From Planctomycetota bacterium (GTDB lineage: Bacteria; Planctomycetota; UBA1135; UBA2386): a stretch of 64,000 nucleotides of DNA. A model generated the notes under the pieces. That model was not told the DNA's origin, made no database searches, and worked only from the letters and a program-made list of their open reading frames with translations. Every line of letters starts with the position of its first letter. The first letter of the stretch is position 1. This document shows positions 26,467 to 52,029 of the stretch, one piece after another. The translations under genes were made by a program, and so were the position numbers. The stretch spans positions 32,001-96,000 of the forward strand of contig CANMWZ010000012.1 of the NCBI GenBank assembly GCA_947501605.1. Direction: 5' to 3'.

Positions 26467-26467
26467 G

Positions 26468-32885: not shown

Positions 32886-34043
32886 CTACTTCTTCTCTTC
32901 CGGCACCGGGAAACCTGCCGGCAACTCCACTGGCCCGTTCTCCACGTCGCCGCTCCCGGGAAGGTCCGCCAATAGCACCGTCATCGACACCGGCGCGTCT
33001 TCGCGCTTCTTCTGCACGCGCATCCCCACGGCGTCGCCGGCCATGCGTGCGCCGATCAACATCTGCAGGTGCGCACCGTTGCGGATCGCAATGCCGTCGA
33101 TGTCGACGATCACATCGCCCTTGCGCAGCCCGGCCTGTGCCGCGACGCCATCTTTCGGCGTGCCACTCAGGCGCGCGCCAGGACCCAAGTGCGCCGGATC
33201 GAGCGTGACCCCGAGCCAACCGCGCTGCAGTCGTTCGCCCTGCTTCATGCGTTCGATCAGCTCTGGGATGTCGGCGATCGTCGAGCAAAAGCCGATGCCC
33301 GAGTCGTACCACTCCACACCGGCATCGCGACCCGATGGCGACAACGGCACCGCGAGACCCAGCACCTTGCCCTCGACGTCGACCACCGCGCCGCCGTAGT
33401 TGGCGGGTGACGTGTAGGCGTCAATCTGCAAGGCGCGACCAAACTGCCGCTTTTGGGCGCTGACGATCCCGAAGTGCACCGTCGGCTCGTCGCTAGCGAA
33501 CGTCCGGCCCAGCACGAACGCCCACTGCCCGACCCGCACATCCTTCGGATCGACCAGTTGCGCAACCGGCAGACTCGTTGCCTCGATCTTGAGCAGCGCC
33601 ATACCGCGGCTGGTGTCCTCGCCCTTCCGCACCGCATGGAAGGTCTCGCCGCCAGGAATACCGACCAGGATCGTGGTCGGGTCGTAGTTGAGGCAGAACC
33701 GCGACACCAGGATCCAGCCGTCCGCGCCAACGATCAGGCCCGTGCTCTTGCCTTGCGATTGATGGAAGCCCGGGTCCTTCAGCGGCAGGTTGCCTTTGCG
33801 ATCGGGATTGGCCGGCGGCTTCGGCACCGGTCGCGGTTGCGCTGGAGCTGTCGAGTCGACGGGCCCGTCATCGCCCAGAACTCGGCGCGTGCCGCCAAAG
33901 GTCTCGATCGTCACGACCCACGGCGCGGCGTGTTCGACCGCCGCCCGGAGCACGGGCTGTAGACGCACGAACTCGTCGAGGTCCGCGCGCTGTTGCGCAC
34001 TCGCGAGAGCGCCGAGCACGACGGCAACAAGCCACCGCCTCAT
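32886..34043 (-). CDS. HtrA-like trypsin fold + PDZ protein, catalytic triad degenerate
   Basis: STGLIVGADGWILVSRF (no His), SRGMALLKI (no Asp), SPANYGG (Ser replaced by Tyr); PDZ GWLGV...AGLRKGDVI. Confidence 0.85.
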   Translation of the reverse strand: MRRWLVAVVLGALASAQQRADLDEFVRLQPVLRAAVEHAAPWVVTIETFGGTRRVLGDDGPVDSTAPAQPRPVPKPPANPDRKGNLPLKDPGFHQSQGKSTGLIVGADGWILVSRFCLNYDPTTILVGIPGGETFHAVRKGEDTSRGMALLKIEATSLPVAQLVDPKDVRVGQWAFVLGRTFASDEPTVHFGIVSAQKRQFGRALQIDAYTSPANYGGAVVDVEGKVLGLAVPLSPSGRDAGVEWYDSGIGFCSTIADIPELIERMKQGERLQRGWLGVTLDPAHLGPGARLSGTPKDGVAAQAGLRKGDVIVDIDGIAIRNGAHLQMLIGARMAGDAVGMRVQKKREDAPVSMTVLLADLPGSGDVENGPVELPAGFPVPEEKK

Positions 34044-35131
34044 TGCTTGTCCTCCGCGAGTTCAAGGTCTCTCTGCATCACCTTGGTGCCGCGCTTCCAG
34101 GTCAGCATGACCTTGTCGCCCGGTTCGAACTTCTTCAGCACGTCGTCGAACTCCTTGCAGCTACGTACCGAGTAGTCGCCGATGCGGACGATCAGGTCGT
34201 CCGGACGCAGCCCGATCGCCGCCGCCGGCGAATCGCGCTCTGCACGGTCGACGTAAGCGGGCGGCGAAGCCCGGCCAGCCTGGCGAAACAACACGATGCC
34301 GGTGCGCACGGGGCGCCGATCGCTCTCGGTCACCTCGCGCAAATCGCCGTTCACGTGCTCGCGCAGGTACGGCAGCAGATCGCGCGACGGAATCGCAGCC
34401 GACAGCATCGTGTTGGTCTCCTTGCTCTCGAGCAATCGCATGTTGAAGCCGATCCAACGGCCGTCGAGAGCAAATAGCCCGCCGCCGTAGTGGCCCGGGT
34501 TGTTGCACGCGTCAGTCAGGATCAGATCGCCGTCGTACTGCACGTCGGCGAGACGAAAGCGCAATGCCGTGTTGGCCCTGCCCACCACGATGCCGAACGT
34601 CGCTGAGACCTTCTCGGAGAACTCCGCAAGGCGGAAACAGTTGCCAAGCGACACGACGAAATCGCCGGTCCGGTAGAGCGGCGCATCGCTCTCGTCGGGC
34701 CAGATCGGGTGCAGCAGACCCTGGCATTGCTCCGGGTCGATCTTGAGCAGACGCACGCCGAGTTTGCCGTCCTCGGGCAGCACTTGTGCGTCGTGCACCG
34801 AACCGTCGTAGAGCACCACACGCGTCCGTTCCTTTTGCACCAACACTTGGTCCAACGTCAGCACGTGACCCTTCGCACTGACGACGATGCCCGTCGCGTA
34901 CGGAGTGATCGTCGAGAGGCCTGAGGCGCCGTGCACCTTGACGATGCTCGGCAGCAGCCGGTCGATCGCGCTCTCGACCTTGGTCGCCGGCGCGCGCTCG
35001 GCAAAGGCGTAGCTCGCGTGCACATCCGCGGACTGCGCTTCCGCAGGCGGCTTCGTTGCATCGGGCAAGTTGGGTTCCCCTTGCGCCGCGAGATCTGTCA
35101 GGGCCAGGAGTAGAACGAGGTACCTCTTCAC
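34040..35131 (-). CDS. HtrA-like trypsin fold + PDZ protein, catalytic triad degenerate
   Basis: ATGIVVSAKGHVLTLDQV (no His at the catalytic position), NNPGHYGG (Ser replaced by Tyr); PDZ DSPAAAIGLRPDDLI. Confidence 0.85.
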   Translation of the reverse strand: MKRYLVLLLALTDLAAQGEPNLPDATKPPAEAQSADVHASYAFAERAPATKVESAIDRLLPSIVKVHGASGLSTITPYATGIVVSAKGHVLTLDQVLVQKERTRVVLYDGSVHDAQVLPEDGKLGVRLLKIDPEQCQGLLHPIWPDESDAPLYRTGDFVVSLGNCFRLAEFSEKVSATFGIVVGRANTALRFRLADVQYDGDLILTDACNNPGHYGGGLFALDGRWIGFNMRLLESKETNTMLSAAIPSRDLLPYLREHVNGDLREVTESDRRPVRTGIVLFRQAGRASPPAYVDRAERDSPAAAIGLRPDDLIVRIGDYSVRSCKEFDDVLKKFEPGDKVMLTWKRGTKVMQRDLELAEDKQ

Positions 35132-36915
35132 TGCGGCCTCCCGAACACGGAGTCTTCGACTTGGACGTCGGTCGCGTAGCTCGCCACTCGCCAACCGCGG
35201 TCGAACACGCCGTCGCGGATGACGCGAACACTGCTGCCATCGCAATGCAGTTCGAGCTTCTCGCGGCGCACGGGATCGCGCAGCGAACAGCCCGCCGCAC
35301 TGCCGTCGGCGAACAGAAAGAACTCGAGTTCCCCGTCGCCTGGGAGCGAGTAGCGGTAGGCCGGGCGGCCGAGCACGTGCACGCCGCCGAGAAGAAGCGC
35401 CTCATCGAACCGCTCGCCGCGATCACAGCCGATCCACAGCAGTGGATTGCAGCGCACGAGCCGTTGCAGCAACGCGTCGCCTTCGACATTGGGGTCGGCT
35501 TCACTCCGCGTGCGAAGGAAACGCACGCCATCGCGGTCCATCGCGGTGGCTTCGCGCGCCATGTCGCGCACTATCGACCACTTGGCGCCGTCGCGGTCCG
35601 CGAATGCGAGTGTGACCGTGCGCTGCGCCGTGGGCGATGTCGCGCGCGCCCTCATCGCCTTGGTGGCGAGCTGCCGTTCGATCAGACTGCTCAGGCGCTC
35701 AGTGTCCGTTCGCGCATCCTTGCTGCTGCCGGTGTCGAGACGCGCCAAGCGGATGTCGACGAAGCGCTCGTCGCCAAAGCTGTTGTCGACGTTCTCTGGG
35801 CGATAGCCGAGTTCGATCCAGGCTCCCGCCGGCAACACGCCGATGCGCGTCGCCAGTTGGTTGGCCGAACGCACATCTTCGCCTTGGAAGTGCACGATCT
35901 CGTCGCCGAGCTTGATGCCAGCGACCGCGGCGACCGAGTCCTTGTAGAGCTGCTGCACGAAGACACCGTGCCGCTCGTCGCCGTTCTTCGTCTTCTTGAA
36001 CCAGGCACTCAGGTCCAGCGTGCCGTGCTCCGCGTGGCGACCGGCGAGCAGGTCGGGCAAGAAGTTGCGCACCTGATTGCACGCGATCGCAAAGCCGACG
36101 CCGACGTTGACGCGACCGCGATCCCCGAGCGAGATGCGGCCGTTGATGCCGATGACTTTGCCGTCCTCGTCGAACAGCGGCCCCCCCGAGTTGCCCGGAT
36201 TGATCGCTGCATCGACTTGGATGCAGTCGGGATATACCAGCATGCGATTGCCCTGGCCTTCCTGGTACCGATGCGTGCCGGAGACGATGCCAAAGGTCAC
36301 CGTCGGCGTGAAATCGGTCGCCAGCAAGAACGGGTTGCCCATGGCAAACACCGTCTGGCCGACGAGCAGCGCGTCCGAATCGCCGAGTTCGCAGCAGGGC
36401 CAGGTTTGGCCGTCGAGCTTTGGCAGCAGCCGCAGCACCGCGAGATCGCTGCCGGGATCGACACCGAGCACCACGGCTTCATAGAGCTCGCCGTCCGGCA
36501 GACCGACCTTCTTGTTGCGCCAGTGGTTCGTGCCGGATGGCCAGTGCTGCTGCTTCCACGCGTCCTGCCAGTCGCTGACGAATCGGTTCTCGTCTTCGCT
36601 GCTGGCTGCGGGATTGGCGGCCTTGAAGGTCTGCAAGGCTTCGGCCGGCGGCGCCGGCGGTGCGGGCAGCACCTTGTCCTTCGGCGTCTTGTCGTTGGTG
36701 TCGGCACCACCGATGACGTGGAAGTTGGTCAGCACATAGCCGCGAGGGTCGATCACGACGCCGCTGCCGCCGCCTGGGGCTTGCATGTCCATCACCGAAC
36801 ACACGGCGGGAGCACACCGGGCAATGACTTCGACGCGGCGTTGCTCCGCGACACGCACGGCGGCGACCGAAGGGTCTTGAGGCCAGAGCGCGATCAACAA
36901 CGACAACACCAGCAT
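35128..36915 (-). CDS. S1C (HtrA/DegP-like) serine protease with PDZ domain and C-terminal extension, intact triad
   Basis: GSGVVID, LTNFHV (His), SDLAVL (Asp), INPGNSGGPL (Ser). Confidence 0.92.
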   Translation of the reverse strand: MLVLSLLIALWPQDPSVAAVRVAEQRRVEVIARCAPAVCSVMDMQAPGGGSGVVIDPRGYVLTNFHVIGGADTNDKTPKDKVLPAPPAPPAEALQTFKAANPAASSEDENRFVSDWQDAWKQQHWPSGTNHWRNKKVGLPDGELYEAVVLGVDPGSDLAVLRLLPKLDGQTWPCCELGDSDALLVGQTVFAMGNPFLLATDFTPTVTFGIVSGTHRYQEGQGNRMLVYPDCIQVDAAINPGNSGGPLFDEDGKVIGINGRISLGDRGRVNVGVGFAIACNQVRNFLPDLLAGRHAEHGTLDLSAWFKKTKNGDERHGVFVQQLYKDSVAAVAGIKLGDEIVHFQGEDVRSANQLATRIGVLPAGAWIELGYRPENVDNSFGDERFVDIRLARLDTGSSKDARTDTERLSSLIERQLATKAMRARATSPTAQRTVTLAFADRDGAKWSIVRDMAREATAMDRDGVRFLRTRSEADPNVEGDALLQRLVRCNPLLWIGCDRGERFDEALLLGGVHVLGRPAYRYSLPGDGELEFFLFADGSAAGCSLRDPVRREKLELHCDGSSVRVIRDGVFDRGWRVASYATDVQVEDSVFGRPQ

Positions 36916-36954
36916 CGCGACTCCGTCAGTTCGGGGATTCGGTCGTTCGGGGGG

Positions 36955-38184
36955 TCACTTCGGCGCGACAGTCGAGGTCTGCAGTACACGCGCTTCTGCG
37001 AAGGCACACAGGTCACCCAGATCGAAGTCGTTGCCAAAGTCGGCTTCGAGCGTGAGTTCGCGGCAACGCGCCAGTTGGAGGTGGATCAACCGCGGCTGCG
37101 AACCAGGTCCACTCAGCGTCACCTCGAACAACAGCTTGCCATCCGTGAGCACGCGGAAGATCGCGTGGGCCTGTGGGCCGGAACGTTCGTCGAAACCGAG
37201 GACCGCCTCGAACACGTCGTAACGGCCACCGAGTTCGAAGGTGAGGCGCGTGCGCGGCACCATCACGAGGCCACGCGCGTAGGTCACGCCACCGAGCACG
37301 ATTCCGGGGCCGGCCGGTGACCGATCGACAGTCCACGGCCAGACACGATCGAACGCAGCAGTTTGCTCCACCCTTGGCTGCATCGATGAGAGCCATGCGA
37401 GCTTGTCGCTCTGGACGTCGAGGCCGAGCAGGCGCGAAGCGGGCACTTCCAAGATCGCGCCTTCGTCAAGCTGCAGCTTCACGCTGGCACCAATCGCCAG
37501 CAGCTTGCCAAAACAGACTTCGCCTCCGGCCAACGAAGCTTGCACACGCGGCGCCGGCAGGCGATCCGGCGCGAAGCCAGTGTTCTTGCCGAACACGATC
37601 GCAGCCACACTGTTGTCACCTCGCAGCGGAAACTCGTAACTCGAGCCACGGAGGTCGAAGTGCACGTTGCCGTCGCGCACGGCCTCGATCGTGACGCCAA
37701 ATCGCTGCGGGGCGCCGTCCTTGACCACGTACAGGTAGTCGCGGTTCTCATCGGGCTCCTTGCGATCGGCGGTGAAGGTCTGCGGATCGTTGGCGCGCGA
37801 GCGCACGGCGGCAACCGTGGTCAGTGGCACTCGAAGCTCGCCCCCGGACGCCAGCTCGATCAGCAGCTGATTGGGTGTTGAGGCAGTGGCGGCAACACCG
37901 TCGATCCTGGTAGCCGGCAACAGCGAGCCCGATCGCAACCACACGCAGAAGTTCGCCTTCGCCGGCGCTTCGACCCCGGCGGCGTCGAGCCGCAAGGACA
38001 TCACGTCAGCAAGTGCGATCGTCTCAGCGCCGATCTGTAGCTCGTTGGCGTCGCCGACGACGATGCCAGTCAGCGTGCGACCGTCAATCGTCACGATCGT
38101 GGCAGCCGACCCCTGCGCAGAAGCCGAGGCAAGGCCAAGCGCGACGCAGGCCGCAGCGACCGAGTATGTCCGTGCGCGCGTCAC
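36955..38184 (-). CDS. Secreted protein with C-terminal NPCBM/NEW2 carbohydrate-binding domain
   Basis: GIVLGGVTYARGL...LTFELGGRYDVFEAVLGFD...FRVLTDGKLLF...LTLEADFG...FAEARV. Confidence 0.85.
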   Translation of the reverse strand: MTRARTYSVAAACVALGLASASAQGSAATIVTIDGRTLTGIVVGDANELQIGAETIALADVMSLRLDAAGVEAPAKANFCVWLRSGSLLPATRIDGVAATASTPNQLLIELASGGELRVPLTTVAAVRSRANDPQTFTADRKEPDENRDYLYVVKDGAPQRFGVTIEAVRDGNVHFDLRGSSYEFPLRGDNSVAAIVFGKNTGFAPDRLPAPRVQASLAGGEVCFGKLLAIGASVKLQLDEGAILEVPASRLLGLDVQSDKLAWLSSMQPRVEQTAAFDRVWPWTVDRSPAGPGIVLGGVTYARGLVMVPRTRLTFELGGRYDVFEAVLGFDERSGPQAHAIFRVLTDGKLLFEVTLSGPGSQPRLIHLQLARCRELTLEADFGNDFDLGDLCAFAEARVLQTSTVAPK

Positions 38185-39218
38185 TTGCCGTTGTTGCCCG
38201 TGCCAAGCTTCTTGTAGTAGCCCTCGAGCAGCTTGCGGTACTGCGGCGGCAGCTTCGTCTGCACCTGCGATTCGATCTGCTTCCGATCCTTCTCGGGCAT
38301 CGGCCCCCATCGGTCGGCGAGGCTGACGCGCTTCTCGAGGTTGCCGATGCGGCCTTCGCCTTCGGTCAACGCACTCTGCGTCGCGGGGTTGTTCGAGGGA
38401 CCATTGCCATTCGGCGGACCACCGGACTGCTTCTCTTGCTGCTCGTACATCTCGATGAGCTCGCTGAGCTCTTCGATCATCTCCTTCTGCTCGACTTGGA
38501 TCGGTTCGTTGGTCTTCTGCTTCTTCAGGTCGCGCCCGACCTTCTTCATGCGGTCGGCGAGCACGTGGAGCCGACTCTCTTGCTGGCGCTCTAGTTCAGC
38601 GACGCGCTGCTGCGCCGTAGCCCGGAAGCGTTCACTCGCCTGAGGAAACCATTCCATAAACGCGCGGAACCGCGGCAAAGCCAAATCGCCGCGAGGGATC
38701 TCCGCCAGCGCCTGGGCATAGAAGAAGGCCGTTTCGCCATCGAGCGGCGTCAAGTTGATATCGAGCTGGAAGTACTCGTTCAGGATTTCGACCGCGCGCT
38801 CGGGGTCGTCACTGTCGAGGAACAGTCGCGCCATGTGGTAGCGCACATGGCCGCCGAGCACCGTATCGGAGTCTTTGGCGAGGATCTCAGCGAGCGCGAG
38901 CACGGCCTTGGGATCCCCGTCCTCACCGAGCCTGACCGCGGCGTCGAAGTCCTTGCGCAAAGCGCGCATCAGAGCATCGGCAGCACGTTCGACGCCGACC
39001 TCGCCGACCTCGCGGGTGAACTGCTCCAACTGCGCGTCAGTGGCGCCGAGCTTCTTCGCATGCGCCTCGTAGGCCGCGCGATCGAATGGACGAAAGGGGC
39101 TCTGCACCGCCGGTGCCGAGGCCGCGGGCTCGTCCTGCGCGCGCAACACGCCGAACAGCGACGATGGTGCAAGACACAGAAAGGCGAGCGCGGCGGTCAG
39201 CTTGCTCGAAAGCGTCAC
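38181..39218 (-). CDS. Secreted TPR-like protein with conserved C-terminal WGxxP...PPQYR..L..YY motif
   Basis: Signal peptide; TPR-like helices (ETAFFYAQALAE); C-terminal WGPMPEKDR...LPPQYRKLLEGYYKKL. Confidence 0.75.
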   Translation of the reverse strand: MTLSSKLTAALAFLCLAPSSLFGVLRAQDEPAASAPAVQSPFRPFDRAAYEAHAKKLGATDAQLEQFTREVGEVGVERAADALMRALRKDFDAAVRLGEDGDPKAVLALAEILAKDSDTVLGGHVRYHMARLFLDSDDPERAVEILNEYFQLDINLTPLDGETAFFYAQALAEIPRGDLALPRFRAFMEWFPQASERFRATAQQRVAELERQQESRLHVLADRMKKVGRDLKKQKTNEPIQVEQKEMIEELSELIEMYEQQEKQSGGPPNGNGPSNNPATQSALTEGEGRIGNLEKRVSLADRWGPMPEKDRKQIESQVQTKLPPQYRKLLEGYYKKLGTGNNGK

Positions 39219-41107
39219 TTGCCCTCCTCGGCGTTGTTCTCCTGGTTGAGCTTGGTCGCAAGCTTGCGCGTGAGATCACGGACCTTCACCTGCTTGCCCG
39301 AAAGCTCGACCGCCTCCGCTCTCCCCTCGTCGGTGTCGCGCATCTCAGCGGGCATACCTTCTTCGTAGTCCTTGGTGCGCTTGTTGACGCGCTCTTGCAG
39401 GTAGCGGACGAGCTTGAGTTCGGCCGAGATCGGCACGAGCTGAGGCTGTCCGTTGCACTGACCGGGCTCACCGCCGCCTTCGCGCTGTTCGATGGCCTTG
39501 CGCAGCGAATTGATCAGCAACTCGAGCGTCTGCTCGACCTCGAACTGACGCTCCTGCACCGGCTTGTCGGTAGCGTTGCCACGGCAGCGCTTCCCGACCT
39601 CGCGCAATTGGTCCTTGAGGTCGGAAACGATCTCGGGGAACACGGCAGTGGTGCCTTCTTCTTCGAGCAACTTCAGCGCATCAGAGGCCTCGACCTCGAG
39701 GTCCTGCTCGCCGGACGCGACGGCCTGGATGCGCGACTGCAGGGCAGCGGGCAGCCCACCGTCGGCAGTCAGCACCTGGGCGCGTGTCTTGTCGAGCGTC
39801 TTGGTCTGCAGCGATAGTTCGCGCTGCTTGGCCAGCATCGCCGTGAAGCGCTCTTCGAGTGCGCGCAGCACTTCGTCTTGCAGTTGCTGCCGCAGTTGGT
39901 TGATCGCTTCGTCGAGCTCGTCACGGGCCTTCTCGAGGTCTTCCTTGGCGTCCTGCTGCTTCTGTTTCGCCGGCTTGTACTCCTTGAGCTGACCCGCGGC
40001 GGCCTTCTGCTTTGGCACCGCCTGCTGCACCGACTTGCGACCAGGCGTCGGTTGACCGTCCTGGTTCTCGCCATCTTGCTCGGACTTCTCCATCTTCTGC
40101 GCGAGGGTGTCGGTCGCGTGCTGGGTGTCGTCCTGGCGCTTGGCCTGCTGGTCGAACGGCAGCTTCTCGAGTTCGCGGCGTGCCTGATCGGCCATCGCTT
40201 CGAGCTCTTTGACGGTCGACTTCAGTTGCTCGATCGCCTGATCCTGGTCCTTCAGCGACGGCTCGGCGTACTTCTGGTCGAGCTGCTGTTGTGCCTTGCT
40301 CATCGACTGCGCCGCGCTGCGCGCGCTGTTGCCCGACTTCGACGACGAACTCGGCGATGGCTTCGACGGCTTCGCTTCGCCGTCCTTCGGAGGCGCCGAC
40401 TCCGAGGGCATGGCCAGTTCGGCGGCCTTCTTGTCGAGTTGGTCAAGGTTCTTGCCGAGCTCTTCGGTTGCAGCCTTCAGCTCGTTCTCCTTCTGCGCCA
40501 GCGGCTTGGTCGCCTCGCCGACGGCCTGCAGGCCGAGCGCATTGGTCTGCTGGCGCAACTGCTGCTGTTCAGCGAGCAGTTGTTCGGTGGCGGCCTTGGC
40601 TTTTTGCACTGCTTCGAGCTGATCCTGCAAAGCCTGCGTGCGTGCCGATGCATCCTTCTCGGCCGCCTGATCCTTGACCAGCTGGTCGACTTCACCGCGA
40701 TAGCCCTTCAAGCGCTCGAGTTGTTCGAGCAACTTGGCGAGGTCGAGGTTGCGGTTTTGCAGCAGGTCGAGCAGTTGGACGAGATCGGCACGAACGGACT
40801 GCATGCGCTCGAGCGCGGCGTCCCACTTCTGCTGATCGAGCAGCGTGCGCACCTGGCCCATCGCGTCCTGGATCTTCTTCTCCTGCGCCAGCGTGAGGCC
40901 CGCGCGCACGAGCTTCACGTCGTCCTGGTTGCCGGCCTTCGTGAGGTAGGCGTGCAGGCGCTGCATGCTCTCCGTCAGCTCACGGAAGCGTGCTTCGGCA
41001 GACTGTTGCTGCTGCGCCACGGGCGGCGGGTCTTGCGCGAGCAACGCCTTAGTCGGAGCCGAGGCGAGGCAGATCGCCGCGCATGCCAATGCAAAGAATC
41101 GTCTCAT
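39215..41107 (-). CDS. Secreted long coiled-coil Gln/Glu/Lys-rich protein (DUF4175-like)
   Basis: Signal peptide; extended heptad-rich helical sequence; C-terminal QLVPISAELKL..LQERVNKRT. Confidence 0.75.
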   Translation of the reverse strand: MRRFFALACAAICLASAPTKALLAQDPPPVAQQQQSAEARFRELTESMQRLHAYLTKAGNQDDVKLVRAGLTLAQEKKIQDAMGQVRTLLDQQKWDAALERMQSVRADLVQLLDLLQNRNLDLAKLLEQLERLKGYRGEVDQLVKDQAAEKDASARTQALQDQLEAVQKAKAATEQLLAEQQQLRQQTNALGLQAVGEATKPLAQKENELKAATEELGKNLDQLDKKAAELAMPSESAPPKDGEAKPSKPSPSSSSKSGNSARSAAQSMSKAQQQLDQKYAEPSLKDQDQAIEQLKSTVKELEAMADQARRELEKLPFDQQAKRQDDTQHATDTLAQKMEKSEQDGENQDGQPTPGRKSVQQAVPKQKAAAGQLKEYKPAKQKQQDAKEDLEKARDELDEAINQLRQQLQDEVLRALEERFTAMLAKQRELSLQTKTLDKTRAQVLTADGGLPAALQSRIQAVASGEQDLEVEASDALKLLEEEGTTAVFPEIVSDLKDQLREVGKRCRGNATDKPVQERQFEVEQTLELLINSLRKAIEQREGGGEPGQCNGQPQLVPISAELKLVRYLQERVNKRTKDYEEGMPAEMRDTDEGRAEAVELSGKQVKVRDLTRKLATKLNQENNAEEGK

Positions 41108-41118
41108 GGGTCGTGCTC

Positions 41119-43437: not shown

Positions 43438-45944
43438 AGGAGGTTGAACCTCTTGCGCAGTAGCCACTCGAGCGAAAGCGCGATCAGCAAGATCGCGACG
43501 GTGATCCAGCCGTCCCAGATCGCGTGCGGCGTGCGGTAGGTGTCCGTGGCGCTGCGCGAGGGGATCTCGCCGAGCGCGGCGAACAGAGCCGCTGGGGTAT
43601 CGAACAACCGACCGCCATTGGCGGCTGCGATCGCAGCAAGTTCGGATCGATCCACCGGACCCTCGCTCTCGATCTGGGCGGGGACCACCTGGAACGGCAC
43701 TTCCACACTCTTGCCGCCCGCCGCCAGCGTTCGCAGCCGGTAGACACCGAGTTGGTCGGGTCGCAGCTGCAACTGGTAGGAACCGGGCACCTCGGCGACC
43801 GGCTCGAGCTTCAGCGGTTCGAGTTCTTTGCCCTCGCGTTCGAGCAGCAGCTCATACGTCGGCGACACCAGCGGCTGCATCTGTTCGTCCTTGGCGTCGA
43901 CGGTGATCGTCAGCGCGTCGCCGAGCTCGACCTTCTCGTCGCTGATGCGCAGCTGGAGGCGGCTGTTGCCGGCGTGAATGCGGCCGTCGAACAAGAAGCG
44001 GATGCCCTTGACCCACAGACGGTCGTAGGCGTCCTCGAACAACGAACGCCACCGATAGGTCTCGTCGATGCCGCTGAAGATCACGCGCCCTGCTCCCACG
44101 AAGTGCGAAGCCACGAGCGGCATGCCGCGGCCATCGCGCTTCAGGCGAGGATCGCAGTTCTCGTGCACCACGAGCACGGTTGCGGCGGGCTTGAGTTGCT
44201 TGACCGGGAACGCCAGGTGGAAGCCCGGGAGCCGCGACCACATCAAGCGACACTGCTCGCGAGACTCGGTGATCCGCGTGATCTTGCTGGCGACGCCGTC
44301 CTCGCCCTCGGGAGTCAGCGTGTAGGGATAGAGCCTCGTATGCGCGAGCCCAAGACCGAGGTTGGCGACACTCTCGGCGTAGACGAGATCAGGAACGATC
44401 GGCAGCAGATCGACGAGCGACTTGGTCGGAGAGGTCTCTTTGAACGAGTCGATGGCGAACTTCTCGCCAGCGATCCACCACAAGCCGCAGCCATTCTCGA
44501 GCACGTGCTTGCGCAGCAACTCGCAGAATGACGGTGTCAGCTTGCTGGCGTCCGGATCGATGGCGATGACCACGTCGAACGGGTCGAGCTGCTTCTCGTC
44601 GACTGGCAATGCGTCAAGACGCACCCCTTCGTCACCGTCTTGAGGAAAGTTCGGATCAGCGCTCTGCAGCCAGCAGCTGACATCGATCGTCTTGTCGCGA
44701 ATCAGCAAGTTGCGCAGGATCTGGAACTCGTGGTTCGAACCGCCCGCAAGCAACAGCACGCGCGCTCGTTCGCCCAACACTTCGACCGGCAGGTTCTTCT
44801 GATGCCGCTCGGGGGCGGGCGGTTCGCCGCTCGGCGGTTCGATCACGGCGCGGTAGACAAAGCGTCCAATCTCCACCGAAGTGATGTCCTTCCACTCGAC
44901 GACGGCTTCGCTGACGGCGCCGCCCACTTCGAGTTGCTGCGTGCGCACCACCGACTCAACGCCCTCGGCGTCGGTGCGCAGCAGGCGGATGGTCATCGGC
45001 ATGGCGTCGTAGCCCTGCGCGACAACGGTGGCGCGGACTTCAAACGGGTCCTTCTGAAACACCTTCTCTGGCGCCTCGAAGTGGCCGATTGCAACCGTCT
45101 GCGTCGCCGACGAATCGCCGATGCCGAGCACGAAGGTGTGCGGCACCTTGCGCTGATTGAGCATGCGCGCAATCTCGGCGGCCTGCGGGCCCGCGTTGCG
45201 CCGGCCGTCACCCAGAATCACGACTGCGGCGATCTCCGAGTTGCGGCTCTTGTCGAGCGCCGAACGCAGGGATCCACCAAGGTTGGAGTAGCGGCCCTTG
45301 GCGGCGATCGCGGCAACATCGAGGCGCGGCGGCGAAAGCCTGCCTTGGTCGTCGCGCGGCGCCGCAGTACTCGAGCTCGAGGCGCCATTGGCCGGCGCCA
45401 GCAAGGGCAACGCATCGATCCCCGACGAATAGCCGTAGAGCATCACGTCGTTCTTGGCCGCAAGTGCGCGGGTGAGCGCGCCGTCATCGTGCGCCAGCAG
45501 CGCCTTGAGCAACTCGATACGCGGCACCGATGCGGGCTCAGCGATCCCGATGCTGCGCCAACCGTCAGCCAGCGCCCGGACTTCGTCGCGGCGGTAGGGA
45601 TCGAGCTGTTGCATCGACTGGCTGGTGTCGGCCAGCAGGATTGTGGTGCCGGGGCGCGTGTCGTGCTTCACCGCCACGAGATTTGGCTCCAGCAACAGCA
45701 GCGCGGCCGCGAGCACCGCGAGTCCGCGAAGGCTCACCAGCATCAGGCGTTGCCGCGAGGTCAGGTTCTTGCCATCGCGCCGGTAGACGAAGCTGACAAA
45801 CAGCACCAGCAGCAACAGCAACAACAGCACGGCGAGGCCGAGGCCACCGCCGGGGAAGCTGGCGAACTCAAACTGCATCTCGACACCATCGGTGGCGATG
45901 CCTTGGAGGTTGGCGATCCAGCGGAGCAGTTCCTGCATGGTCAT
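43434..45944 (-). CDS. vWA domain membrane protein with Ig-like and glutamine-amidotransferase-like domains
   Basis: MIDAS DTSQS, GDG; ARVLLLAGG; GAGRVIFSGIDETYRWR; C-terminal TM ending EWLLRKR. Confidence 0.85.
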   Translation of the reverse strand: MTMQELLRWIANLQGIATDGVEMQFEFASFPGGGLGLAVLLLLLLLVLFVSFVYRRDGKNLTSRQRLMLVSLRGLAVLAAALLLLEPNLVAVKHDTRPGTTILLADTSQSMQQLDPYRRDEVRALADGWRSIGIAEPASVPRIELLKALLAHDDGALTRALAAKNDVMLYGYSSGIDALPLLAPANGASSSSTAAPRDDQGRLSPPRLDVAAIAAKGRYSNLGGSLRSALDKSRNSEIAAVVILGDGRRNAGPQAAEIARMLNQRKVPHTFVLGIGDSSATQTVAIGHFEAPEKVFQKDPFEVRATVVAQGYDAMPMTIRLLRTDAEGVESVVRTQQLEVGGAVSEAVVEWKDITSVEIGRFVYRAVIEPPSGEPPAPERHQKNLPVEVLGERARVLLLAGGSNHEFQILRNLLIRDKTIDVSCWLQSADPNFPQDGDEGVRLDALPVDEKQLDPFDVVIAIDPDASKLTPSFCELLRKHVLENGCGLWWIAGEKFAIDSFKETSPTKSLVDLLPIVPDLVYAESVANLGLGLAHTRLYPYTLTPEGEDGVASKITRITESREQCRLMWSRLPGFHLAFPVKQLKPAATVLVVHENCDPRLKRDGRGMPLVASHFVGAGRVIFSGIDETYRWRSLFEDAYDRLWVKGIRFLFDGRIHAGNSRLQLRISDEKVELGDALTITVDAKDEQMQPLVSPTYELLLEREGKELEPLKLEPVAEVPGSYQLQLRPDQLGVYRLRTLAAGGKSVEVPFQVVPAQIESEGPVDRSELAAIAAANGGRLFDTPAALFAALGEIPSRSATDTYRTPHAIWDGWITVAILLIALSLEWLLRKRFNLL

Positions 45945-45954
45945 CTCGGGCCGC

Positions 45955-48201
45955 TCAGCGGCGTCCGAACCTCCAGGCCAGAAGGGTCTCGAGCAGCAGC
46001 GCGAGCAACATGCCAAACCCGAGCAGGCGCCACAATTCGCCCTCGCTGCCACCACTCCCGAGGCCCGCGCTCTCGTCGCGGAACGTCACTCGATCGTGTA
46101 TCTCGGGCGGGAACACCCGCGTGAAGTCCGCAGTCGCAAGGCGCACGAGGCGGCTCTCGAAGATGTCGGGATTGCGGGCAAACACGCGCGTCTCGACCGT
46201 GCCGGAGTGCAGTCTGAGTTGGACGTCGTAGCAGCCGAGCGACGTGAGTTCGGCCATCGGCAGCGCCAGCTCCAGTGCGCGCGGGACGGACTCGGCGGTC
46301 GTCGTCGGGCTCGTGGCCGGCGAAGCGACTTCGGGCAGCGTTGCCGTCAGCGTCCGCTCGTCACCATCTTCGGCCAACGCCCGTACGACGACGTCGGCTT
46401 CGTAACTGCCCGGATCGAGTTGCAGGCGGTAGATGCCATCGGGCTGCAGGTTCCGGCTCGCGAGTTCACGGGGGCGGCTGGCAAAGCGGTGCACCTGGTG
46501 CGCCATCACCACATTGGCGTCGGTGTCCGGCCAATTGGACCAGTGCTTGTCGGCCGAGAACGCGAACAGCACGACTTCACCGCCGCCGCTGCCGAACGTG
46601 CGGGTGACGATTGCCGGCGGGCCGTCCGCATCGCGCATGCGCGCGAGAACCGCGGCGTTGGCACTCCGCTCCTCGACGATCGTGAGGTAGCGCTTGGCCA
46701 GCACGGCATTGTCGATCAACAACTGCAAGACATCGCCGATCTTGCCGCAAACAGGATGGCTCTGATCGGTCAAGACGACGTGTTCGCGTCGATCCGGGTC
46801 GCCGGCGATGTCGCCGAGCGGCAGCGGCAAGAGGCCCTGCCCGCCACGCCACATCGCGTCCGTGTAGCGAACCGGGTCGACCTGCGCACCGACGAAGATC
46901 GCGATGCCGCCACCAGCGGCCGCGAACCGTTCCAACTTCTCGACCGTGCTGCGCGGCGGCACCGGCACGTTGCACAGCCAGATCATGTCGAACGGAGCGA
47001 GGTCGAGTTCGGCGAGCGAACTCTCGGCGACGACCTCGGCCGCGATCCCCGACGGTTGATCGCTGCCCGGGTCGAGCGCGACCTGCAAGAACAGCGTTTC
47101 GCCGCCTTCGCCGTCCTCGGGCTCCCCATCCACGAGCAACACGCGCGAACTCGGCAGCACCGGCAACGCGAGCGCACGGCGGTCATCGACCAGGTAGTGG
47201 TCGACCGCGACGAAGGACGCCTCGACCCGATGATCGCCCGGCTGGTGAAACGTGTGCACCACTGCGACCGAGACGCGTTCACCGGGCGCGAGCGGCGGCA
47301 ACGGGCGCGCAACGCGGGTCTTGCCGTCGACCTCGATCGCGAGCTCACCGGCTGCCGTGGCATCGAGACCGAGGTTCTGCACATCGATCGCGAGTTCGAC
47401 CGGTACGCCCGCCGTCGCCAGACGATCGACGCACCGGACCGCGACGATCGCGAGGTTGTCGGCGTCGCGCGAACCGACACCCGTGGCGTGCAGGTGTTCG
47501 TTCTGCGGATCGAAGGCTGCAATCGTCTGCAGCAACTTGCCGCGTGGCTTGTCGTCGTCGCCGATCCAGTCGATCGCCCGGAGGTCACCGACGAGGTAGT
47601 AGTCGTTACGACTGGCCTCCTTCATCGCCGTCGCGCGGGCGCGGGCATCGTGGAGGACGCTGCCAAAGTCTGCCGTGCCGTCGCCTACCCGCATCTCCGC
47701 CAGCACTGCCCCGACCCGGCGTTCGAGATCTTCGCCAACTCGCTGCGCCCACAAGTCAGGCTGCGCTGGTCGGCTCGCCCGCAGGATCGACAACAGGTCC
47801 CCACTGCGCGAGTCGGCGAGGGCTGTCACGAGCTGTCTGACCTGGTCCTGCGCCTTGTCCCAGAGCGCAACACTGCCACTCCGCTGGCGCATCGAGGCGG
47901 TGTCGTCGAGCACGACGACGTGGTGCGTGACCGTCGAAACGAGACCACCGCCACCGAGTTGGGGCCGCGACACCAGCATCACCAACAGCAGCACCGCCAG
48001 TGTTCGCAGCAACAGCACGAGCCATTGCTCCATGCGCAAGCGCTTGCGGTTGCGCTCGAGAGCCTTGAGCAAGTACTCCATCGCAGCCCACGACACCTGC
48101 TGGAACCGTCGGCGATTCAGCAGATGGATGAGGATAGGCACTGCCGCGAGTGGCACCGCCCAGAGCAGCATCGGGTTGAGGAATGAGAACGCGAAGATCA
48201 C
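45955..48201 (-). CDS. BatA-domain / vWA protein with CARDB-like and GATase-like domains
   Basis: FLNPMLLW...VPILIHLLNRRR...WAAMEYL (BatA N-terminus); LDDTASM (MIDAS); C-terminal TM ending AWRFGRR. Confidence 0.9.
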   Translation of the reverse strand: MIFAFSFLNPMLLWAVPLAAVPILIHLLNRRRFQQVSWAAMEYLLKALERNRKRLRMEQWLVLLLRTLAVLLLVMLVSRPQLGGGGLVSTVTHHVVVLDDTASMRQRSGSVALWDKAQDQVRQLVTALADSRSGDLLSILRASRPAQPDLWAQRVGEDLERRVGAVLAEMRVGDGTADFGSVLHDARARATAMKEASRNDYYLVGDLRAIDWIGDDDKPRGKLLQTIAAFDPQNEHLHATGVGSRDADNLAIVAVRCVDRLATAGVPVELAIDVQNLGLDATAAGELAIEVDGKTRVARPLPPLAPGERVSVAVVHTFHQPGDHRVEASFVAVDHYLVDDRRALALPVLPSSRVLLVDGEPEDGEGGETLFLQVALDPGSDQPSGIAAEVVAESSLAELDLAPFDMIWLCNVPVPPRSTVEKLERFAAAGGGIAIFVGAQVDPVRYTDAMWRGGQGLLPLPLGDIAGDPDRREHVVLTDQSHPVCGKIGDVLQLLIDNAVLAKRYLTIVEERSANAAVLARMRDADGPPAIVTRTFGSGGGEVVLFAFSADKHWSNWPDTDANVVMAHQVHRFASRPRELASRNLQPDGIYRLQLDPGSYEADVVVRALAEDGDERTLTATLPEVASPATSPTTTAESVPRALELALPMAELTSLGCYDVQLRLHSGTVETRVFARNPDIFESRLVRLATADFTRVFPPEIHDRVTFRDESAGLGSGGSEGELWRLLGFGMLLALLLETLLAWRFGRR

Positions 48202-48211
48202 TGGCGCCGAC

Positions 48212-49264
48212 TCAACGTTGGTAGATGGGGACGAGAGCGAACGGCAACTGCAGGATCGTCAGCGCGATGGCGGTGCCGAAGACCGGACCGCAACCATCGC
48301 TCTCCCACGAACCATCCTTGCGCTGCAAGCGCACGAGATAGGGTCCGATCTTGGCGAGGTAGTCGTCCCAGTCCTTACCGCCGCGCTGGTACAGCGCCTG
48401 CGAGAAATAGAGCTGCGTGTAGAAGTGATGGCCCGTCGTGTCGGACGTCGGATTGACGTTGCGCATGACGTACTTCATCGCCTTGTCGACGAACGGCTGA
48501 TCGTCGTAGAAGCCGGCGTTGTAGAGCACGGCGACGCCGGCAGCGCTGATGGCGGGCCGGCTGGAGCCGCGCGATCCGAGGCTGTAGCTGATGCCGCCGT
48601 CCGCGTTCTGGCACTTCTTGATGTAATCGACGGCACGATCGATCGTCTTCTTGTCGACGACGATGCCGTCCATCCGACAGGCGCGCAGCGCTTGCACTTG
48701 CGTGACCGTCACGCTGCCTTCGTCACCACCTGAGTCGGGCGTGTAGATCCAACCGCCGGCGCTCGACTGCGCGCGCTCCACCAGCTTCACCGCCCGCGTC
48801 AGCACGCCCTGAAGTCTCTGTTGGCGCTGCGCGTCCTCTTCCATGCCATAGACCGACGCGAGATACAGCAACGCGAAGCCGTGCCCGTACATGTTCCGGT
48901 TCTCGGTCGACATGTCGGTGATGACGCCAGTCTGCGGATCGGCCTGCTTCATCAAGAACTCCATCGACTGGCGCACTTCGCGCCAATGCACGCCGCGGGT
49001 GGGCGTCGATCCCGATGCGACCAGAGCCATGCCAGCAAGGCCGGTCATCGCGGTGGGATACGTGCCGTGACCACCAGCGTTGCGCCACGAGCCATCGGTC
49101 GACTGGTTGCGTTTCAAGTACTGCAGCCCGCTCTGGATCGAAGTGTACATCTCGCGCGAGATGCCGCGCGGCAGCAGCTCTGGGACCGCTTGTGCCCTAG
49201 CAGTTGCGCCGAAGAGCAGGATCGTGGCGAGAGCAGACACAGCGAGTGCATGTGGCGTCGTCAT
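48212..49264 (-). CDS. Secreted prenyltransferase/squalene-oxidase-repeat (alpha-alpha barrel) protein
   Basis: QW-like repeats NQSTDGSW, AQSSAGGW, CQNADGG, LQRKDGSW; MYGHGFA; signal peptide. Confidence 0.88.
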   Translation of the reverse strand: MTTPHALAVSALATILLFGATARAQAVPELLPRGISREMYTSIQSGLQYLKRNQSTDGSWRNAGGHGTYPTAMTGLAGMALVASGSTPTRGVHWREVRQSMEFLMKQADPQTGVITDMSTENRNMYGHGFALLYLASVYGMEEDAQRQQRLQGVLTRAVKLVERAQSSAGGWIYTPDSGGDEGSVTVTQVQALRACRMDGIVVDKKTIDRAVDYIKKCQNADGGISYSLGSRGSSRPAISAAGVAVLYNAGFYDDQPFVDKAMKYVMRNVNPTSDTTGHHFYTQLYFSQALYQRGGKDWDDYLAKIGPYLVRLQRKDGSWESDGCGPVFGTAIALTILQLPFALVPIYQR

Positions 49265-52029
49265 TGCTTGCCCTCCATGTAGCGGTAAAGGAGCTGTTGC
49301 TCCTGCTCGAGTGCAGGTAGGTCGTTCAGGGCGCGCGACACGTCCATTCGGGCGAGATGCCATGCGAGGCGAACGCGGCGGTCGGTGACCAACGGCTGCA
49401 TGCGGTCGAGTGGCGCGAGCGACCTCACGGCTTCGGTCACCGACAATTCACGCGCGTAGTCGATGGCGAGAAGACTCGCACGTTCGCGGTCGGCTGGCGT
49501 GGCGTTCGAGCTGGACGCAAGGTCGGCGACGAGCGCATCGAAGGCATCTTGCTTGCGGCCCACCTGCACGAGGTAGCGCGCACGCTCTTCGACGGTCCCA
49601 CTGCGAGCTGCGAGTTCGTTCAACGCCGTCGCACTGCTGTAGAGCTCGATGCCGGTTGCGTAGCAGACTGCGAGCCATGGACCGGCTGAGAACAGGTTGT
49701 TGGGCCCAGCGAGCGGTTCGTCACCGAGGCCAAACGACGGCAGAGTCAATCGGTTGAACGCAGCAGGCCTCTTCACATCCAGCACGAGCACTTCGCGATC
49801 ACTCGGCAGCAAGACAAAATCGCCAACCACGCAGCCGCGCCCAGGCCATCGCGTCAATCGTTCGCTGGGGCGCGGGATCTCGATCGACCAACGAACGATG
49901 CCCGTCGCGATCTCGATGCCGACGAGATGGTCGCGCAAGTCACCCGAAGCCTCCGCGAACAGCAAGGGTCCGCTCACGCCGAGGAGGTAGCGGATCTTGC
50001 CGTAGGGCGCGTAGCGGGAGGTGCCGTCGAGCATCCAGACGGGATCGCCACTAGCGCCGTCGAGACAGAACACCATGTCGGTGTCGCAGGCCGCAAACAC
50101 CACCGAGCCGCCGATCTCGAAGATCGCGCTCGGCAAGAAGCCTGGAAGGTCTGCCTCCGAGAAGGCACTGCTGAAGCCAAACGGTGAGTTGCCGTTCTCG
50201 CGCTTCCGTTTGGCCGGCCGTCGGCGCAGCGGGTCGTCCCGCTCGTACTTGCGGATCCATCGCAGGTCGCCAGCAAACGCGTCGACGGCACCGACGGCAC
50301 CGGCGTTGGTGAGCATGTAGGCGAGGTTGCCGATCACGTGCACGCGGGCGCCCGGCGCCTTGAAGTAGCTCGTGCCGCCGCCGTGAATGCGGGTGTGCCA
50401 CAACGGCTCGCCGGTGCGCCGGTCGAGGCACTGCAACTCGTAGGCGCCGTTGCGCAGTGTCGGTACGAGCAATCGTTCGCCGAACAGGGTCGGAGCGGCG
50501 AGGAAGGTCACGTCCGCAAGGCCGTCGTCGCCGGCGCAGAAGTCCTTCGTCGACCACGCGCGTTGGCACTCAGGCTTGCGATAGGCAACGATCTCGTTGA
50601 GCTTCAGCGGATCGACGCTTTGCGTGACGCGGTTGTAGCCAAGGACCGCGTAGTAGCGCTCTTGGTCCTCGACCGGCGCCATGAGCGCAAAGTCGTATGC
50701 CGGCACTCGTGGACGCGGTCGCATCTCCTGAGGCTTTGGCGGCAACTGCTCGCCGTCGCCTTCGACTTGCAGCACGCCCGAAAACGACTCTGCGATGCGC
50801 AGCCGGAAGTTCTCGAGAAACAGCGTGCGAGGCAAAGCCGCACCGCCGCCACTGAATGCGACCTGGGTGCCGACGCCGTACTTCGACCCCGGCGGCGCTG
50901 AGTTGGCAACGGTCTCACTGCCAAACATGAAGATCGAGTCGCTGCCGCGTCGGTCCTTGATCGGTTCGTAGGGATTCGACCCGGCGAAGCGATAGACCCA
51001 CATGGGTAGCAGCGTGGTGCTCGCCTCGGTGAGCCACTCGATGTTGGCGCCCGGTTGCAACGCCGTGGTCGCCGGCTGCGCGTCGCTGGTCGCAAAGAGC
51101 GGGTGCTCGGGCAACTGACTCACGGGCTGCAGCTCGCCCATCAGGCGCAGCGACTCGTCGGGGAAGTCCGCGGCGATCTTGCGCGCCGCATCGTTGGCCG
51201 CACCAATCTCGCCAGCAAGACGAAGGCACAGTGCGATCTTGAATCGGCACCACAGCGGCGAGATTCCCAGCTTGGCCAGATTGGCCGCCGGATAGAGCTC
51301 GAGAACATCGCGTAGCACCTGAACCGCGGCGCGGTATTGGCCAGCGTTGAGATGGCGGTCGGCCAGCACCTGTTGCGCCGTTCCGGCTGCGAGAGTCGGA
51401 AAGTAGCGCAGCGCCACCTGCTCGAGGTCGCGCAGCGAACCGCTGGTCTGCGCCTGCGCCAACATCTCGCCAGCTACCGCCTCGAACAGGCTTTGATAGA
51501 GTTCGATCCCGGTCGCGGGCATCGCCGCGAGGTACTCCTGGCACAGTCGACCGGCAGGGCGATAGACGCGGCCGTCGGCAGAAAACACTGCCTGCCGCGG
51601 GTCGATGGCCGCCGCGTCGGCCGCCGGCGGAGCGGGCGCTTCGCCCTCGACTGGCGGCTTGCGCTCACCTTCCGCGGCTTCAGGCGCTGACGGTGCGGGC
51701 GTGGGCGTCGCCTGGGTCTCGCCTGCTTCGAGCGGCATCGCCTCCAGGGTCCGCCCCTCGACCACGGACTGCAGCACCTGGATCGCGTCGGCGAAGCGCT
51801 CCTCGGTCAAGAACTGGCGTGCGCGCCGAACGAAGCGGTCGAGGTTGGGGCTCTCGAACAACTCGACCGGCGGGCCGGAATCGCCAGTCTCGTTGCCGCT
51901 CTCCGGCGCCTGAATTGCCCCGCCCGCGCGCCCGACCTGGATTCGCAGTTGCTGACCGCGCACATCACTGCCCAGCAGAGCGGCGACGGCGCAGAGCACA
52001 GCCGGAACGGGCGGCAATAGGAAAATCAC
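49261..52029 (-). CDS. TPR + PQQ-like (BamB-type) beta-propeller protein
   Basis: Repeats CLDRRTGEPLW, AVDAFAGDLRW, CLDGASGDPVW, GIEIATGIVRW; TPR-like N-terminal half. Start codon uncertain. Confidence 0.82.
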   Translation of the reverse strand: MIFLLPPVPAVLCAVAALLGSDVRGQQLRIQVGRAGGAIQAPESGNETGDSGPPVELFESPNLDRFVRRARQFLTEERFADAIQVLQSVVEGRTLEAMPLEAGETQATPTPAPSAPEAAEGERKPPVEGEAPAPPAADAAAIDPRQAVFSADGRVYRPAGRLCQEYLAAMPATGIELYQSLFEAVAGEMLAQAQTSGSLRDLEQVALRYFPTLAAGTAQQVLADRHLNAGQYRAAVQVLRDVLELYPAANLAKLGISPLWCRFKIALCLRLAGEIGAANDAARKIAADFPDESLRLMGELQPVSQLPEHPLFATSDAQPATTALQPGANIEWLTEASTTLLPMWVYRFAGSNPYEPIKDRRGSDSIFMFGSETVANSAPPGSKYGVGTQVAFSGGGAALPRTLFLENFRLRIAESFSGVLQVEGDGEQLPPKPQEMRPRPRVPAYDFALMAPVEDQERYYAVLGYNRVTQSVDPLKLNEIVAYRKPECQRAWSTKDFCAGDDGLADVTFLAAPTLFGERLLVPTLRNGAYELQCLDRRTGEPLWHTRIHGGGTSYFKAPGARVHVIGNLAYMLTNAGAVGAVDAFAGDLRWIRKYERDDPLRRRPAKRKRENGNSPFGFSSAFSEADLPGFLPSAIFEIGGSVVFAACDTDMVFCLDGASGDPVWMLDGTSRYAPYGKIRYLLGVSGPLLFAEASGDLRDHLVGIEIATGIVRWSIEIPRPSERLTRWPGRGCVVGDFVLLPSDREVLVLDVKRPAAFNRLTLPSFGLGDEPLAGPNNLFSAGPWLAVCYATGIELYSSATALNELAARSGTVEERARYLVQVGRKQDAFDALVADLASSSNATPADRERASLLAIDYARELSVTEAVRSLAPLDRMQPLVTDRRVRLAWHLARMDVSRALNDLPALEQEQQLLYRYMEGKQ

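Follow-up and report, generated by a model that had tools for sequence, protein, structure and literature searches.

The window analyzed here is a stretch of 64,000 nucleotides from a Planctomycetota bacterium (G000:C12:32001-96000, with G000 denoting the source genome). It carries an operon of eleven genes, g1 to g11, that is a planctomycete variant of the MoxR-DUF58-BatA/vWA-DUF4175 envelope cluster, of the Bat/cmd kind, rather than a new class of system; we file the locus as a variant because MoxR and DUF58 are not adjacent here. The operon is real, and its order is conserved across the phylum. A preliminary description of this DNA had taken the function of the full assembly to be undescribed. 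We likewise found no description of the cluster, or of a natural bacterial HtrA heterotrimer, in a search of the full-text literature that left subscription journals largely outside, and we add to that account that the assembly belongs with a known type of cluster. The genes and their positions in the window are as follows:

49261..52029, minus strand: g1, exported TPR and PQQ-type beta-propeller protein, 922 amino acids (PF13360, E 1.8e-11; hydrophobic N-terminus; homologues).
48212..49264, minus strand: g2, exported alpha/alpha barrel of the squalene-cyclase/prenyltransferase type, 350 amino acids (Pfam; model; 1gsz).
45955..48201, minus strand: g3, BatA N-terminus with two transmembrane segments, vWA, CARDB/Ig, GATase-like domain, and C-terminal transmembrane segment, 748 amino acids (PF07584, E 1.3e-17; TIGR02226; transmembrane scan).
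43434..45944, minus strand: g4, paralogue of g3 with two transmembrane segments, vWA, Ig, GATase1-like, Ig, and C-terminal transmembrane segment, 836 amino acids (hhalign; model).
41119..43437, minus strand: g5, protein with three transmembrane segments that probably forms the N-terminal portion of a split protein of the DUF4175 type, 772 amino acids (transmembrane scan; Atlas; profile).
39215..41107, minus strand: g6, exported helical/coiled-coil DUF4175-like protein, 630 amino acids (PF13779 in 9/38 alignment members).
38181..39218, minus strand: g7, exported helical protein, 345 amino acids (C-terminal motif by eye; weak profile support).
36955..38184, minus strand: g8, exported NPCBM/NEW2 (lectin-like) protein, 409 amino acids (PF08305, E 2.2e-21).
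35128..36915, minus strand: g9, HtrA-type protease with intact H66/D157/S243, PDZ, and a C-terminal domain, 595 amino acids (Pfam/NCBIfam; homologue alignment).
34040..35131, minus strand: g10, HtrA pseudoprotease (Q95/G125/Y215) with PDZ, 363 amino acids (aligned to DegQ 4ynn).
32886..34043, minus strand: g11, HtrA pseudoprotease (F116/G147/Y216) with PDZ, 385 amino acids (aligned to DegP-like 22kg).

The eleven open reading frames (ORFs) run from 52029 down to 32886 and are coding-like, with GC contents of 0.73-0.83 at third codon positions (GC3) versus 0.38-0.50 at second positions (GC2). With the best starts, the junctions from g1 to g11 measure -4, 10, 10, -4, 11, -4, -4, 39, -4, and -4 nt, giving a 4-nt overlap at six of ten and a gap of 10-39 nt at four, in agreement with the preliminary description of 11 same-strand genes with 4-nt overlaps or gaps of at most 40 nt. 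Its propeller, barrel, NPCBM, and BatA assignments also hold: Pfam and NCBIfam scans matched PQQ_2 and a weak TPR in g1, SQHop_cyclase_C/Prenyltrans in g2, BatA and CARDB in g3, NPCBM in g8, and Trypsin_2 plus PDZ in g9-g11, with no match in the g4-g7 proteins of this genome. A hydropathy scan placed two N-terminal and one C-terminal transmembrane segments in each of g3 and g4 and three in g5, and the remaining operon proteins have signal-like N-termini (judged by eye for g8-g11). As had been proposed, all products are predicted to be exported or membrane-anchored, a call made from N-terminal sequence and this simple scan. A scan for promoters and terminators was uninformative (0 promoter-like sites; 10 terminator-like sites versus 12.1 in shuffles). 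In four metatranscriptome contig sets, 30, 30, 23, and 26 of 30 operon bins had depth, compared with 30, 30, 26, and 19 for a control stretch; because the two are covered alike, these sets may reflect DNA and are no evidence for a transcript.

Gene order was compared in relatives that are mostly metagenome-assembled genomes labelled Planctomycetota. A g11 match at E<=1e-20 is present in 19 of 31 genomes (G000 counted). Among the 13 close relatives whose locus was fetched, six have an identical g1-g11 order, six are cut by contig or fetch ends and are collinear as far as visible, and G015 has g1-g8 plus g11 in order. Across 80 named loci, g7-g10 precede g11 in 61 of the 65 with enough flank. 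Ten loci from distant families, chosen from the top g7 matches and so not a random sample, have the protease trio directly after g7/g8 in eight cases and MoxR plus DUF58 immediately before g3 in seven. The expectation that order would be kept in relatives is borne out.

MoxR and DUF58 are absent from the locus studied here, and g2 abuts g3 in all ten close relatives showing that junction. BatA/vWA genes usually partner MoxR ATPases, as the preliminary description noted, and since the MoxR-DUF58 pair lies inside the operon in the seven distant loci, the ATPase-less state here reads as a lineage-specific loss or relocation. The driving MoxR ATPase and its DUF58 adaptor are probably encoded elsewhere in this genome, which has six strong MoxR matches and two BatA-type loci. 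Contig C20 carries a paralogous operon:

G000:C20:62954-79675: MoxR, DUF58, g3-like, g4-like, large g1-like, barrel, g5-like, and g6-like genes (profile matches).

The large propeller-like gene of this operon is an ORF of about 1800 amino acids, and the g6-like gene continues at the end of contig C4 (205961-207346, minus strand), where the contig ends overlap by a found 149 nt. The C20 MoxR is the best match within this genome to all seven in-operon MoxRs (58-64% versus 35-49% for the others) and groups with them on a tree (support 88/96), with the other MoxRs of this genome on long branches. The C20 operon thus appears to hold the best partner in trans for the locus, although such use in trans is deduced from relatedness. 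Five other genomes have 5-9 BatA-type loci each, and most of 13 further stretches carry a g3/g4 pair and a g5-like protein, which in six is a single chain of 1196-1465 amino acids. These loci form a paralogous family of modules with varying accessory genes. Two other loci, G000:C4:30-8368 and C27:18716-26336, hold Bat-like operons of the classical layout, with DUF58, small vWA pairs, and TPR, and are separate from the present cluster.

At the center of the operon are two vWA membrane proteins, as the preliminary description had recognized, each with a metal ion-dependent adhesion site (MIDAS). The BatA double-transmembrane domain of g3 scores above cut-off with PF07584 and TIGR02226 and is found in 16/16 alignment members, with VWA_2 in 11 of 16. 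Its MIDAS reads D99-x-T-x-S103 here and DxSxS in 15/15 homologues; that of g4 is D106-x-S-x-S110, with DxSxS in 17 of 18 homologues. Although g4 has no Pfam match of its own, VWA is matched by 8 of its 19 alignment members, and g3 and g4 are paralogues over 586 columns (hhalign 99.6%, E 4.5e-25). The g4 model (pLDDT 83, pTM 0.50) contains a vWA domain comparable to BatB 3ibs (Z 16.8, root-mean-square deviation 3.6 over 183 residues) and a GATase1-like domain whose matches include 2gk3 (Z 21.4) and 3rht from Planctopirus limnophila (Z 21.1). A Foldseek search with the whole g4 model returned low TM-scores only, the best being OST48/Wbp1 (TMq 0.20). By the positive-inside rule, the basic loop between the BatA transmembrane segments suggests that the vWA domains are periplasmic. 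Scans of the operon proteins with Pfam and NCBIfam detected no BatD or SH3 partners.

Downstream of this pair, the proposed DUF4175-like scaffold is traced through homologues of g6, nine of 38 of which match PF13779 (best E 3.6e-8); none of 62 g5 homologues does. The link for g5 is an Atlas association (score 0.95) with a 1169-amino-acid DUF4175 cluster, 37% of whose members carry PF13779. In addition, the g5 profile matches the N-terminal 450-600 amino acids of the 1196-1465-amino-acid proteins in paralogous operons, and a C-terminal P-x-x-Y...Y-Y motif in g7 resembles, by eye, the ends of these long fused paralogues. In g5 we probably see the N-terminal portion of a split protein of this type. 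Hidden Markov models of g6 and g7 matched the C-termini of six long fused paralogues weakly (best 8 bits), so the idea of a split protein draws mostly on g5 and the terminal motif. At loci L101 and L104 (family f49), 2-3 kb between g5 and g6 have no profile match and may hold an extra subunit.

A Gly-rich linker in g6 carries Cys551 (TGC) in this genome, and many homologues have an in-frame TGA at the aligned site. Such a stop occurs in 33 of the 61 loci with the g6 C-terminal motif, and 43 of 43 stops are TGA; Cys only is found in 23 (this genome included) and neither in five. The frame continues past the TGA to the usual end, leaving tails of 69-77 amino acids versus 70-76 in loci with no stop, and SelA is encoded in 5/5 family genomes. 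By a crude energy test, hairpins after the TGA fold but are no stabler than those after Cys codons (-6.9 versus -8.3 kcal/mol). The TGA in g6 homologues is probably selenocysteine. Ten loci (L044, L055, L057, L059, L060, L063, L064, L069, L072, and L077) have two TGAs in the linker, separated by only a few codons, which may be a diselenide motif. The Cys/TGA site was not found in the distant members L105 and L119.

The last three genes encode HtrA-type proteins. The preliminary description had counted three trypsin-PDZ HtrAs; the domains are present in g9-g11, but a catalysis-ready triad is found in g9 only. Triad positions were fixed by alignment to solved HtrAs and counted across the 77 loci, among L021-L120, in which all three genes are close to complete. 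His, Asp, and Ser are all kept by g9 in 77/77, while g10 has Ser in none, His in six, and Asp in three, and g11 has none of the three residues in any locus and Tyr at the Ser position in 77/77. As judged from these residues, g9 is the sole catalytically intact protease of the trio, and g10 and g11 are predicted pseudoenzymes. Mean pairwise identity of the protease core is 76% for g9, 58% for g10, and 67% for g11, so the dead copies are constrained. Of 301 phylum genomes, 54 have a single match of at least 282 bits to the g11 profile, the next match scoring 209 bits, and the orthologue is single-copy in all 24 genomes of family f13. In databases the dead g11 copies go under the name 'serine protease', a label that should be corrected. 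The C-terminal domain of g9 had no PDB sequence match (best E 0.59).

Several gene arrangements bear on whether the three proteins assemble together. In 11 genomes, nine from the locus survey plus G015 and G082, g9 and g10 share one ORF; on a FastTree phylogeny (51/78 rows) this fusion amounts to four changes, at least three of them forced by strong branches. Twenty further loci, mostly mid-scoring g11 matches, yielded 14 with trios of a second clade, three of the first clade, and three single ordinary HtrAs. The second clade comprises 15 dead-dead-live trios in 13 genomes (L134-L144, L147, L148, and L153); G124 and G249 hold two of them apiece. H-D-S is complete in all 15 live members. His is missing from every one of the 15 g11-like members, and the g10-like members never have Ser, with Asp or Glu in its place; in L153, L147, and L142 the two dead members are fused. 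Because each adjacent pair is thus found fused and the genes are retained together, one three-subunit complex fits, and we predict such a g9-g10-g11 complex with somewhat better than even confidence. Taken with the second-clade trios, the g9-g10 fusions make a mixed HtrA oligomer likely.

The accessory proteins g1 and g2 precede the vWA pair. In several distant relatives g1 is about 1550 amino acids long, versus 922 here, and only the structural PQQ_2 repeat was matched. The g2 model (pLDDT 86) is a single barrel closest to squalene-hopene cyclase 1gsz (Z 27.0, root-mean-square deviation 2.7 over 281 residues); its TIGR01507 score is 39.5 bits versus a cut-off of 431, and alignment A3 shows no conservation of its sole DxDD (298). 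The DEGSVTVTQ segment is invariant and could be catalytic. The gene is duplicated in tandem in G005, G014, and G018. At L108:11565-13697 (G091), a barrel (g2) ORF lies right after g11, tying the barrel to the trio in family f26. Head-to-head with g1, in this genome and in close relatives, is a possible twelfth part:

52267..54528, plus strand: g0, divergent exported HEAT-repeat and propeller-like protein, 753 amino acids (Pfam).

The g0 gene is kept in all seven relatives whose g1-side end was fetched, and it matches g8 over 47 residues only (E 0.002). We take its solenoid-plus-propeller layout to recall membrane-coat-like proteins.

TraDIS data from a cultured planctomycete, P. limnophila, bear indirectly on the importance of such genes. 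We read the label pair COG2304 plus COG1572 as vWA with CARDB, and COG2304 plus COG5426 as vWA with a GATase-like domain. The first pair is carried by Plim_2312 and the second by Plim_2313, within four consecutive genes (Plim_2312-2315) whose insertion indices of 0.003-0.009, versus about 0.1 for their neighbours, are in the essential range (PMC10632474). MoxR Plim_1689 and COG1721 Plim_1690, at another locus, also have a low index; both are listed as essential, as are COG1657 Plim_0306 and two COG0265 genes (PMC10632474). As a means of mapping Plim_2312-2315 to a paralogue, pdxJ, which neighbours them, was sought near BatA or g7 loci and was found near none in 15/15 genomes.

Our preferred reading, held tentatively and with a little less than even confidence, is that the cluster forms a MoxR-driven inner-membrane platform that assembles and quality-checks periplasmic or surface proteins and is coupled to the predicted mixed HtrA oligomer. 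Cytoplasmic MoxR would act, via DUF58, on g3, at the short basic loop that links its two N-terminal transmembrane segments. The g3 and g4 proteins would pair, anchored at both ends, and their periplasmic MIDAS-vWA domains would grip clients. The g5, g6, and g7 proteins, read as pieces of a split DUF4175-type protein, would build a long helical stalk, which the Cys/selenocysteine linker of g6 may gate by redox state, and g1, g2, and g8 may recognize clients or glycans. The g9, g10, and g11 proteins would form a 1:1:1 HtrA unit in which substrate binding and control of the one active site fall to the dead subunits, and by which clients are trimmed or removed.

Several points weigh against this platform. 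Its topology and the MoxR-to-BatA link are deduced, and its clients, interactions, and phenotype are putative. Since five genomes have 5-9 BatA-type loci each, the genes essential in P. limnophila could derive from a different paralogue. Most paralogous BatA modules from G161, G101, and G094 have no adjacent protease, L087 has no g9 match, and the trio is absent at the scaffold locus in G276, G127, and L128 and 9 kb from the scaffold in G015. In G148 and G238 the trio genes are scattered far apart, each still present singly. The second-clade trios stand free among unrelated neighbours in 13 genomes (60 of 103 flanking ORFs scanned), and g10 and g10-like proteins form two groups on the tree. 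Since the trio is found without the scaffold, it can live independently, and one machine is not established for all 11 genes. Of the single trans-envelope machine first proposed, gene order upholds a conserved envelope system, while the inclusion of the trio is weakened by its occurrence apart from the scaffold genes.

The main rival, which we consider unlikely, follows from these same observations: two separate systems would share one operon without touching each other directly. One would be a Bat/cmd-type membrane module (g1-g8), the other a live/dead HtrA complex (g9-g11) that acts on its own in general envelope quality control. The 15 free-standing trios, the scattered trios of G148 and G238, and the scaffold loci without proteases all fit this arrangement. 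It accounts less well for a trio that comes right after g7/g8 in 8/10 distant and 61/65 closer loci and is joined by 4-nt overlaps here.

As an alternative to client handling, the g3-g7 core might mainly span the wide periplasm of planctomycetes as a structural tether or a scaffold that transduces force, serving shape, budding, or membrane spacing, with g9 only maturing or turning over the scaffold. Pfam scans of all subunits, and of the g3-g6 alignments, revealed no peptidoglycan-binding or outer-membrane anchor domain, and the existence of 5-9 paralogous modules with different accessory genes would be left unexplained; we regard this as improbable in spite of the doubly anchored g3/g4, the long helical g5-g7, the essential vWA quartet of P. 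limnophila (PMC10632474), and the shape defects of Rhizobium cmd mutants. Less probable again is a system that loads metal or redox cofactors into periplasmic enzymes or reshuffles their disulfides. MoxR acting on methanol dehydrogenase and NorQD on nitric oxide reductase are precedents (PMC3893208), and the g6 Cys/TGA motif, double in ten loci, and the PQQ-type propeller of g1 would suit such a role, but the Cys/TGA site is missing from 5/61 loci and from distant L105 and L119, no redox client gene is linked, and the g1 match is to a structural repeat only.

We reject, as hardly credible, a role in complement-like or counter-invader defence of the kind seen in vWA-MoxR ternary systems. Trypsin, inactive trypsin, and NPCBM domains do occur in described vWA-MoxR conflict systems (PMC7159879, PMC8195603), and g2 has a weak TED match (E 0.0045), but no CxEQ thioester motif occurs in any of the 12 proteins (g0-g11), the propeller C-terminal to vWA that subsystem 4 needs is missing, and the fixed order, single copies, and highly conserved protease cores (mean identity 58-76%) set the cluster apart from variable conflict systems. 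The analogy to complement factor B/C3 in the preliminary description falls with it, as the barrel is closer to squalene-hopene cyclase than to C3 (Z 27.0 versus 19.7) and the vWA domains are not fused to proteases.

A bolder version of the platform, possible but rather doubtful in our view, is that the cluster represents an undescribed and partly essential planctomycete family of trans-membrane machines in which ATP-driven force from MoxR would pass through a BatA/vWA heterodimer to a redox-gated periplasmic stalk (Cys/selenocysteine), with clients fed to a natural HtrA heterotrimer that has a single live subunit beside two dead ones. MoxR-vWA operons of the Bat/cmd type occur widely, and how they work is still unexplained; the fixed exported partners and protease supply candidate clients and an assay. 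Because genes with matching domain labels are essential in a cultured planctomycete, the question is directly testable.

Two neighbouring loci in the window lie outside the operon. At 30556-32658 (minus strand), 227 nt downstream, a 700-amino-acid ORF fuses metallo-beta-lactamase, rhodanese, and 1-Cys peroxiredoxin. A DUF1549/DUF1553 plus DUF1501 gene pair at 25063-28963 (minus strand) resembles a kind of planctomycete module reportedly described by Kamneva. The abstract of Kamneva 2012 describes its conserved module as related to electron transport, and a term search of that paper returned none of six terms (PMC3542564).

Similar to the MRP-subfamily MoxR-DUF58-BatA/vWA operons Rhizobium leguminosarum cmdA-D (RL3499-RL3502), Bacteroides fragilis Bat, and Borrelia bb0170-bb0176, the cluster has a BatA N-terminus with two transmembrane segments and MIDAS-vWA; it further shares paired vWA membrane proteins, MoxR and DUF58 partners (in seven of ten distant loci), and an association with the envelope. 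MoxR-DUF58-vWA Bat operons are described as having no clear function, and Rhizobium cmdA-D mutants, by second-hand account, as having envelope and shape defects (PMC5700661, PMC3893208). Growth on TY medium is impaired for RL3499 and RL3500 (PMC5118466), and CenR targets include a MoxR gene and a TIGR02302 gene (PMC9275681). Unlike these operons, the locus here is without MoxR and DUF58, has no detected BatD or SH3, and adds GATase1-like and Ig domains, a split DUF4175-type scaffold, an alpha/alpha barrel, a TPR-propeller, NPCBM, and a live/dead HtrA trio.

The vWA-MoxR beta-propeller ternary systems, also found in planctomycetes, likewise combine MoxR, vWA, and a third gene with TPR plus propeller, but their vWA proteins have a strictly C-terminal propeller and their MoxR often has GxxxTAKS (PMC7159879). 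Here vWA is followed by Ig and GATase-like domains (in the g4 model, to which g3 aligns), and the C20 MoxR has GVPGLAKT.

Like HtrA, DegP, and DegQ (peptidase S1C), the trio joins Trypsin_2 to PDZ, and its best PDB matches are DegQ and DegP-like. The known proteins are homo-oligomers built on trimers, whereas here we predict a naturally occurring hetero-oligomer in which one subunit type is active; if true, a conserved complex of one live and two dead HtrAs would extend HtrA biology beyond homo-oligomers. The closest live/dead precedent is MamE/MamO of magnetotactic bacteria, in which an active HtrA needs an HtrA pseudoprotease for its activity (PMC4794232). MamO binds metal and activates MamE via a TauE domain, and the main text does not contain 'trimer' or 'hetero' (PMC4794232). 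The trio described here differs from that pair: its two dead paralogues are distinct from each other, both have PDZ, and fusions recur.

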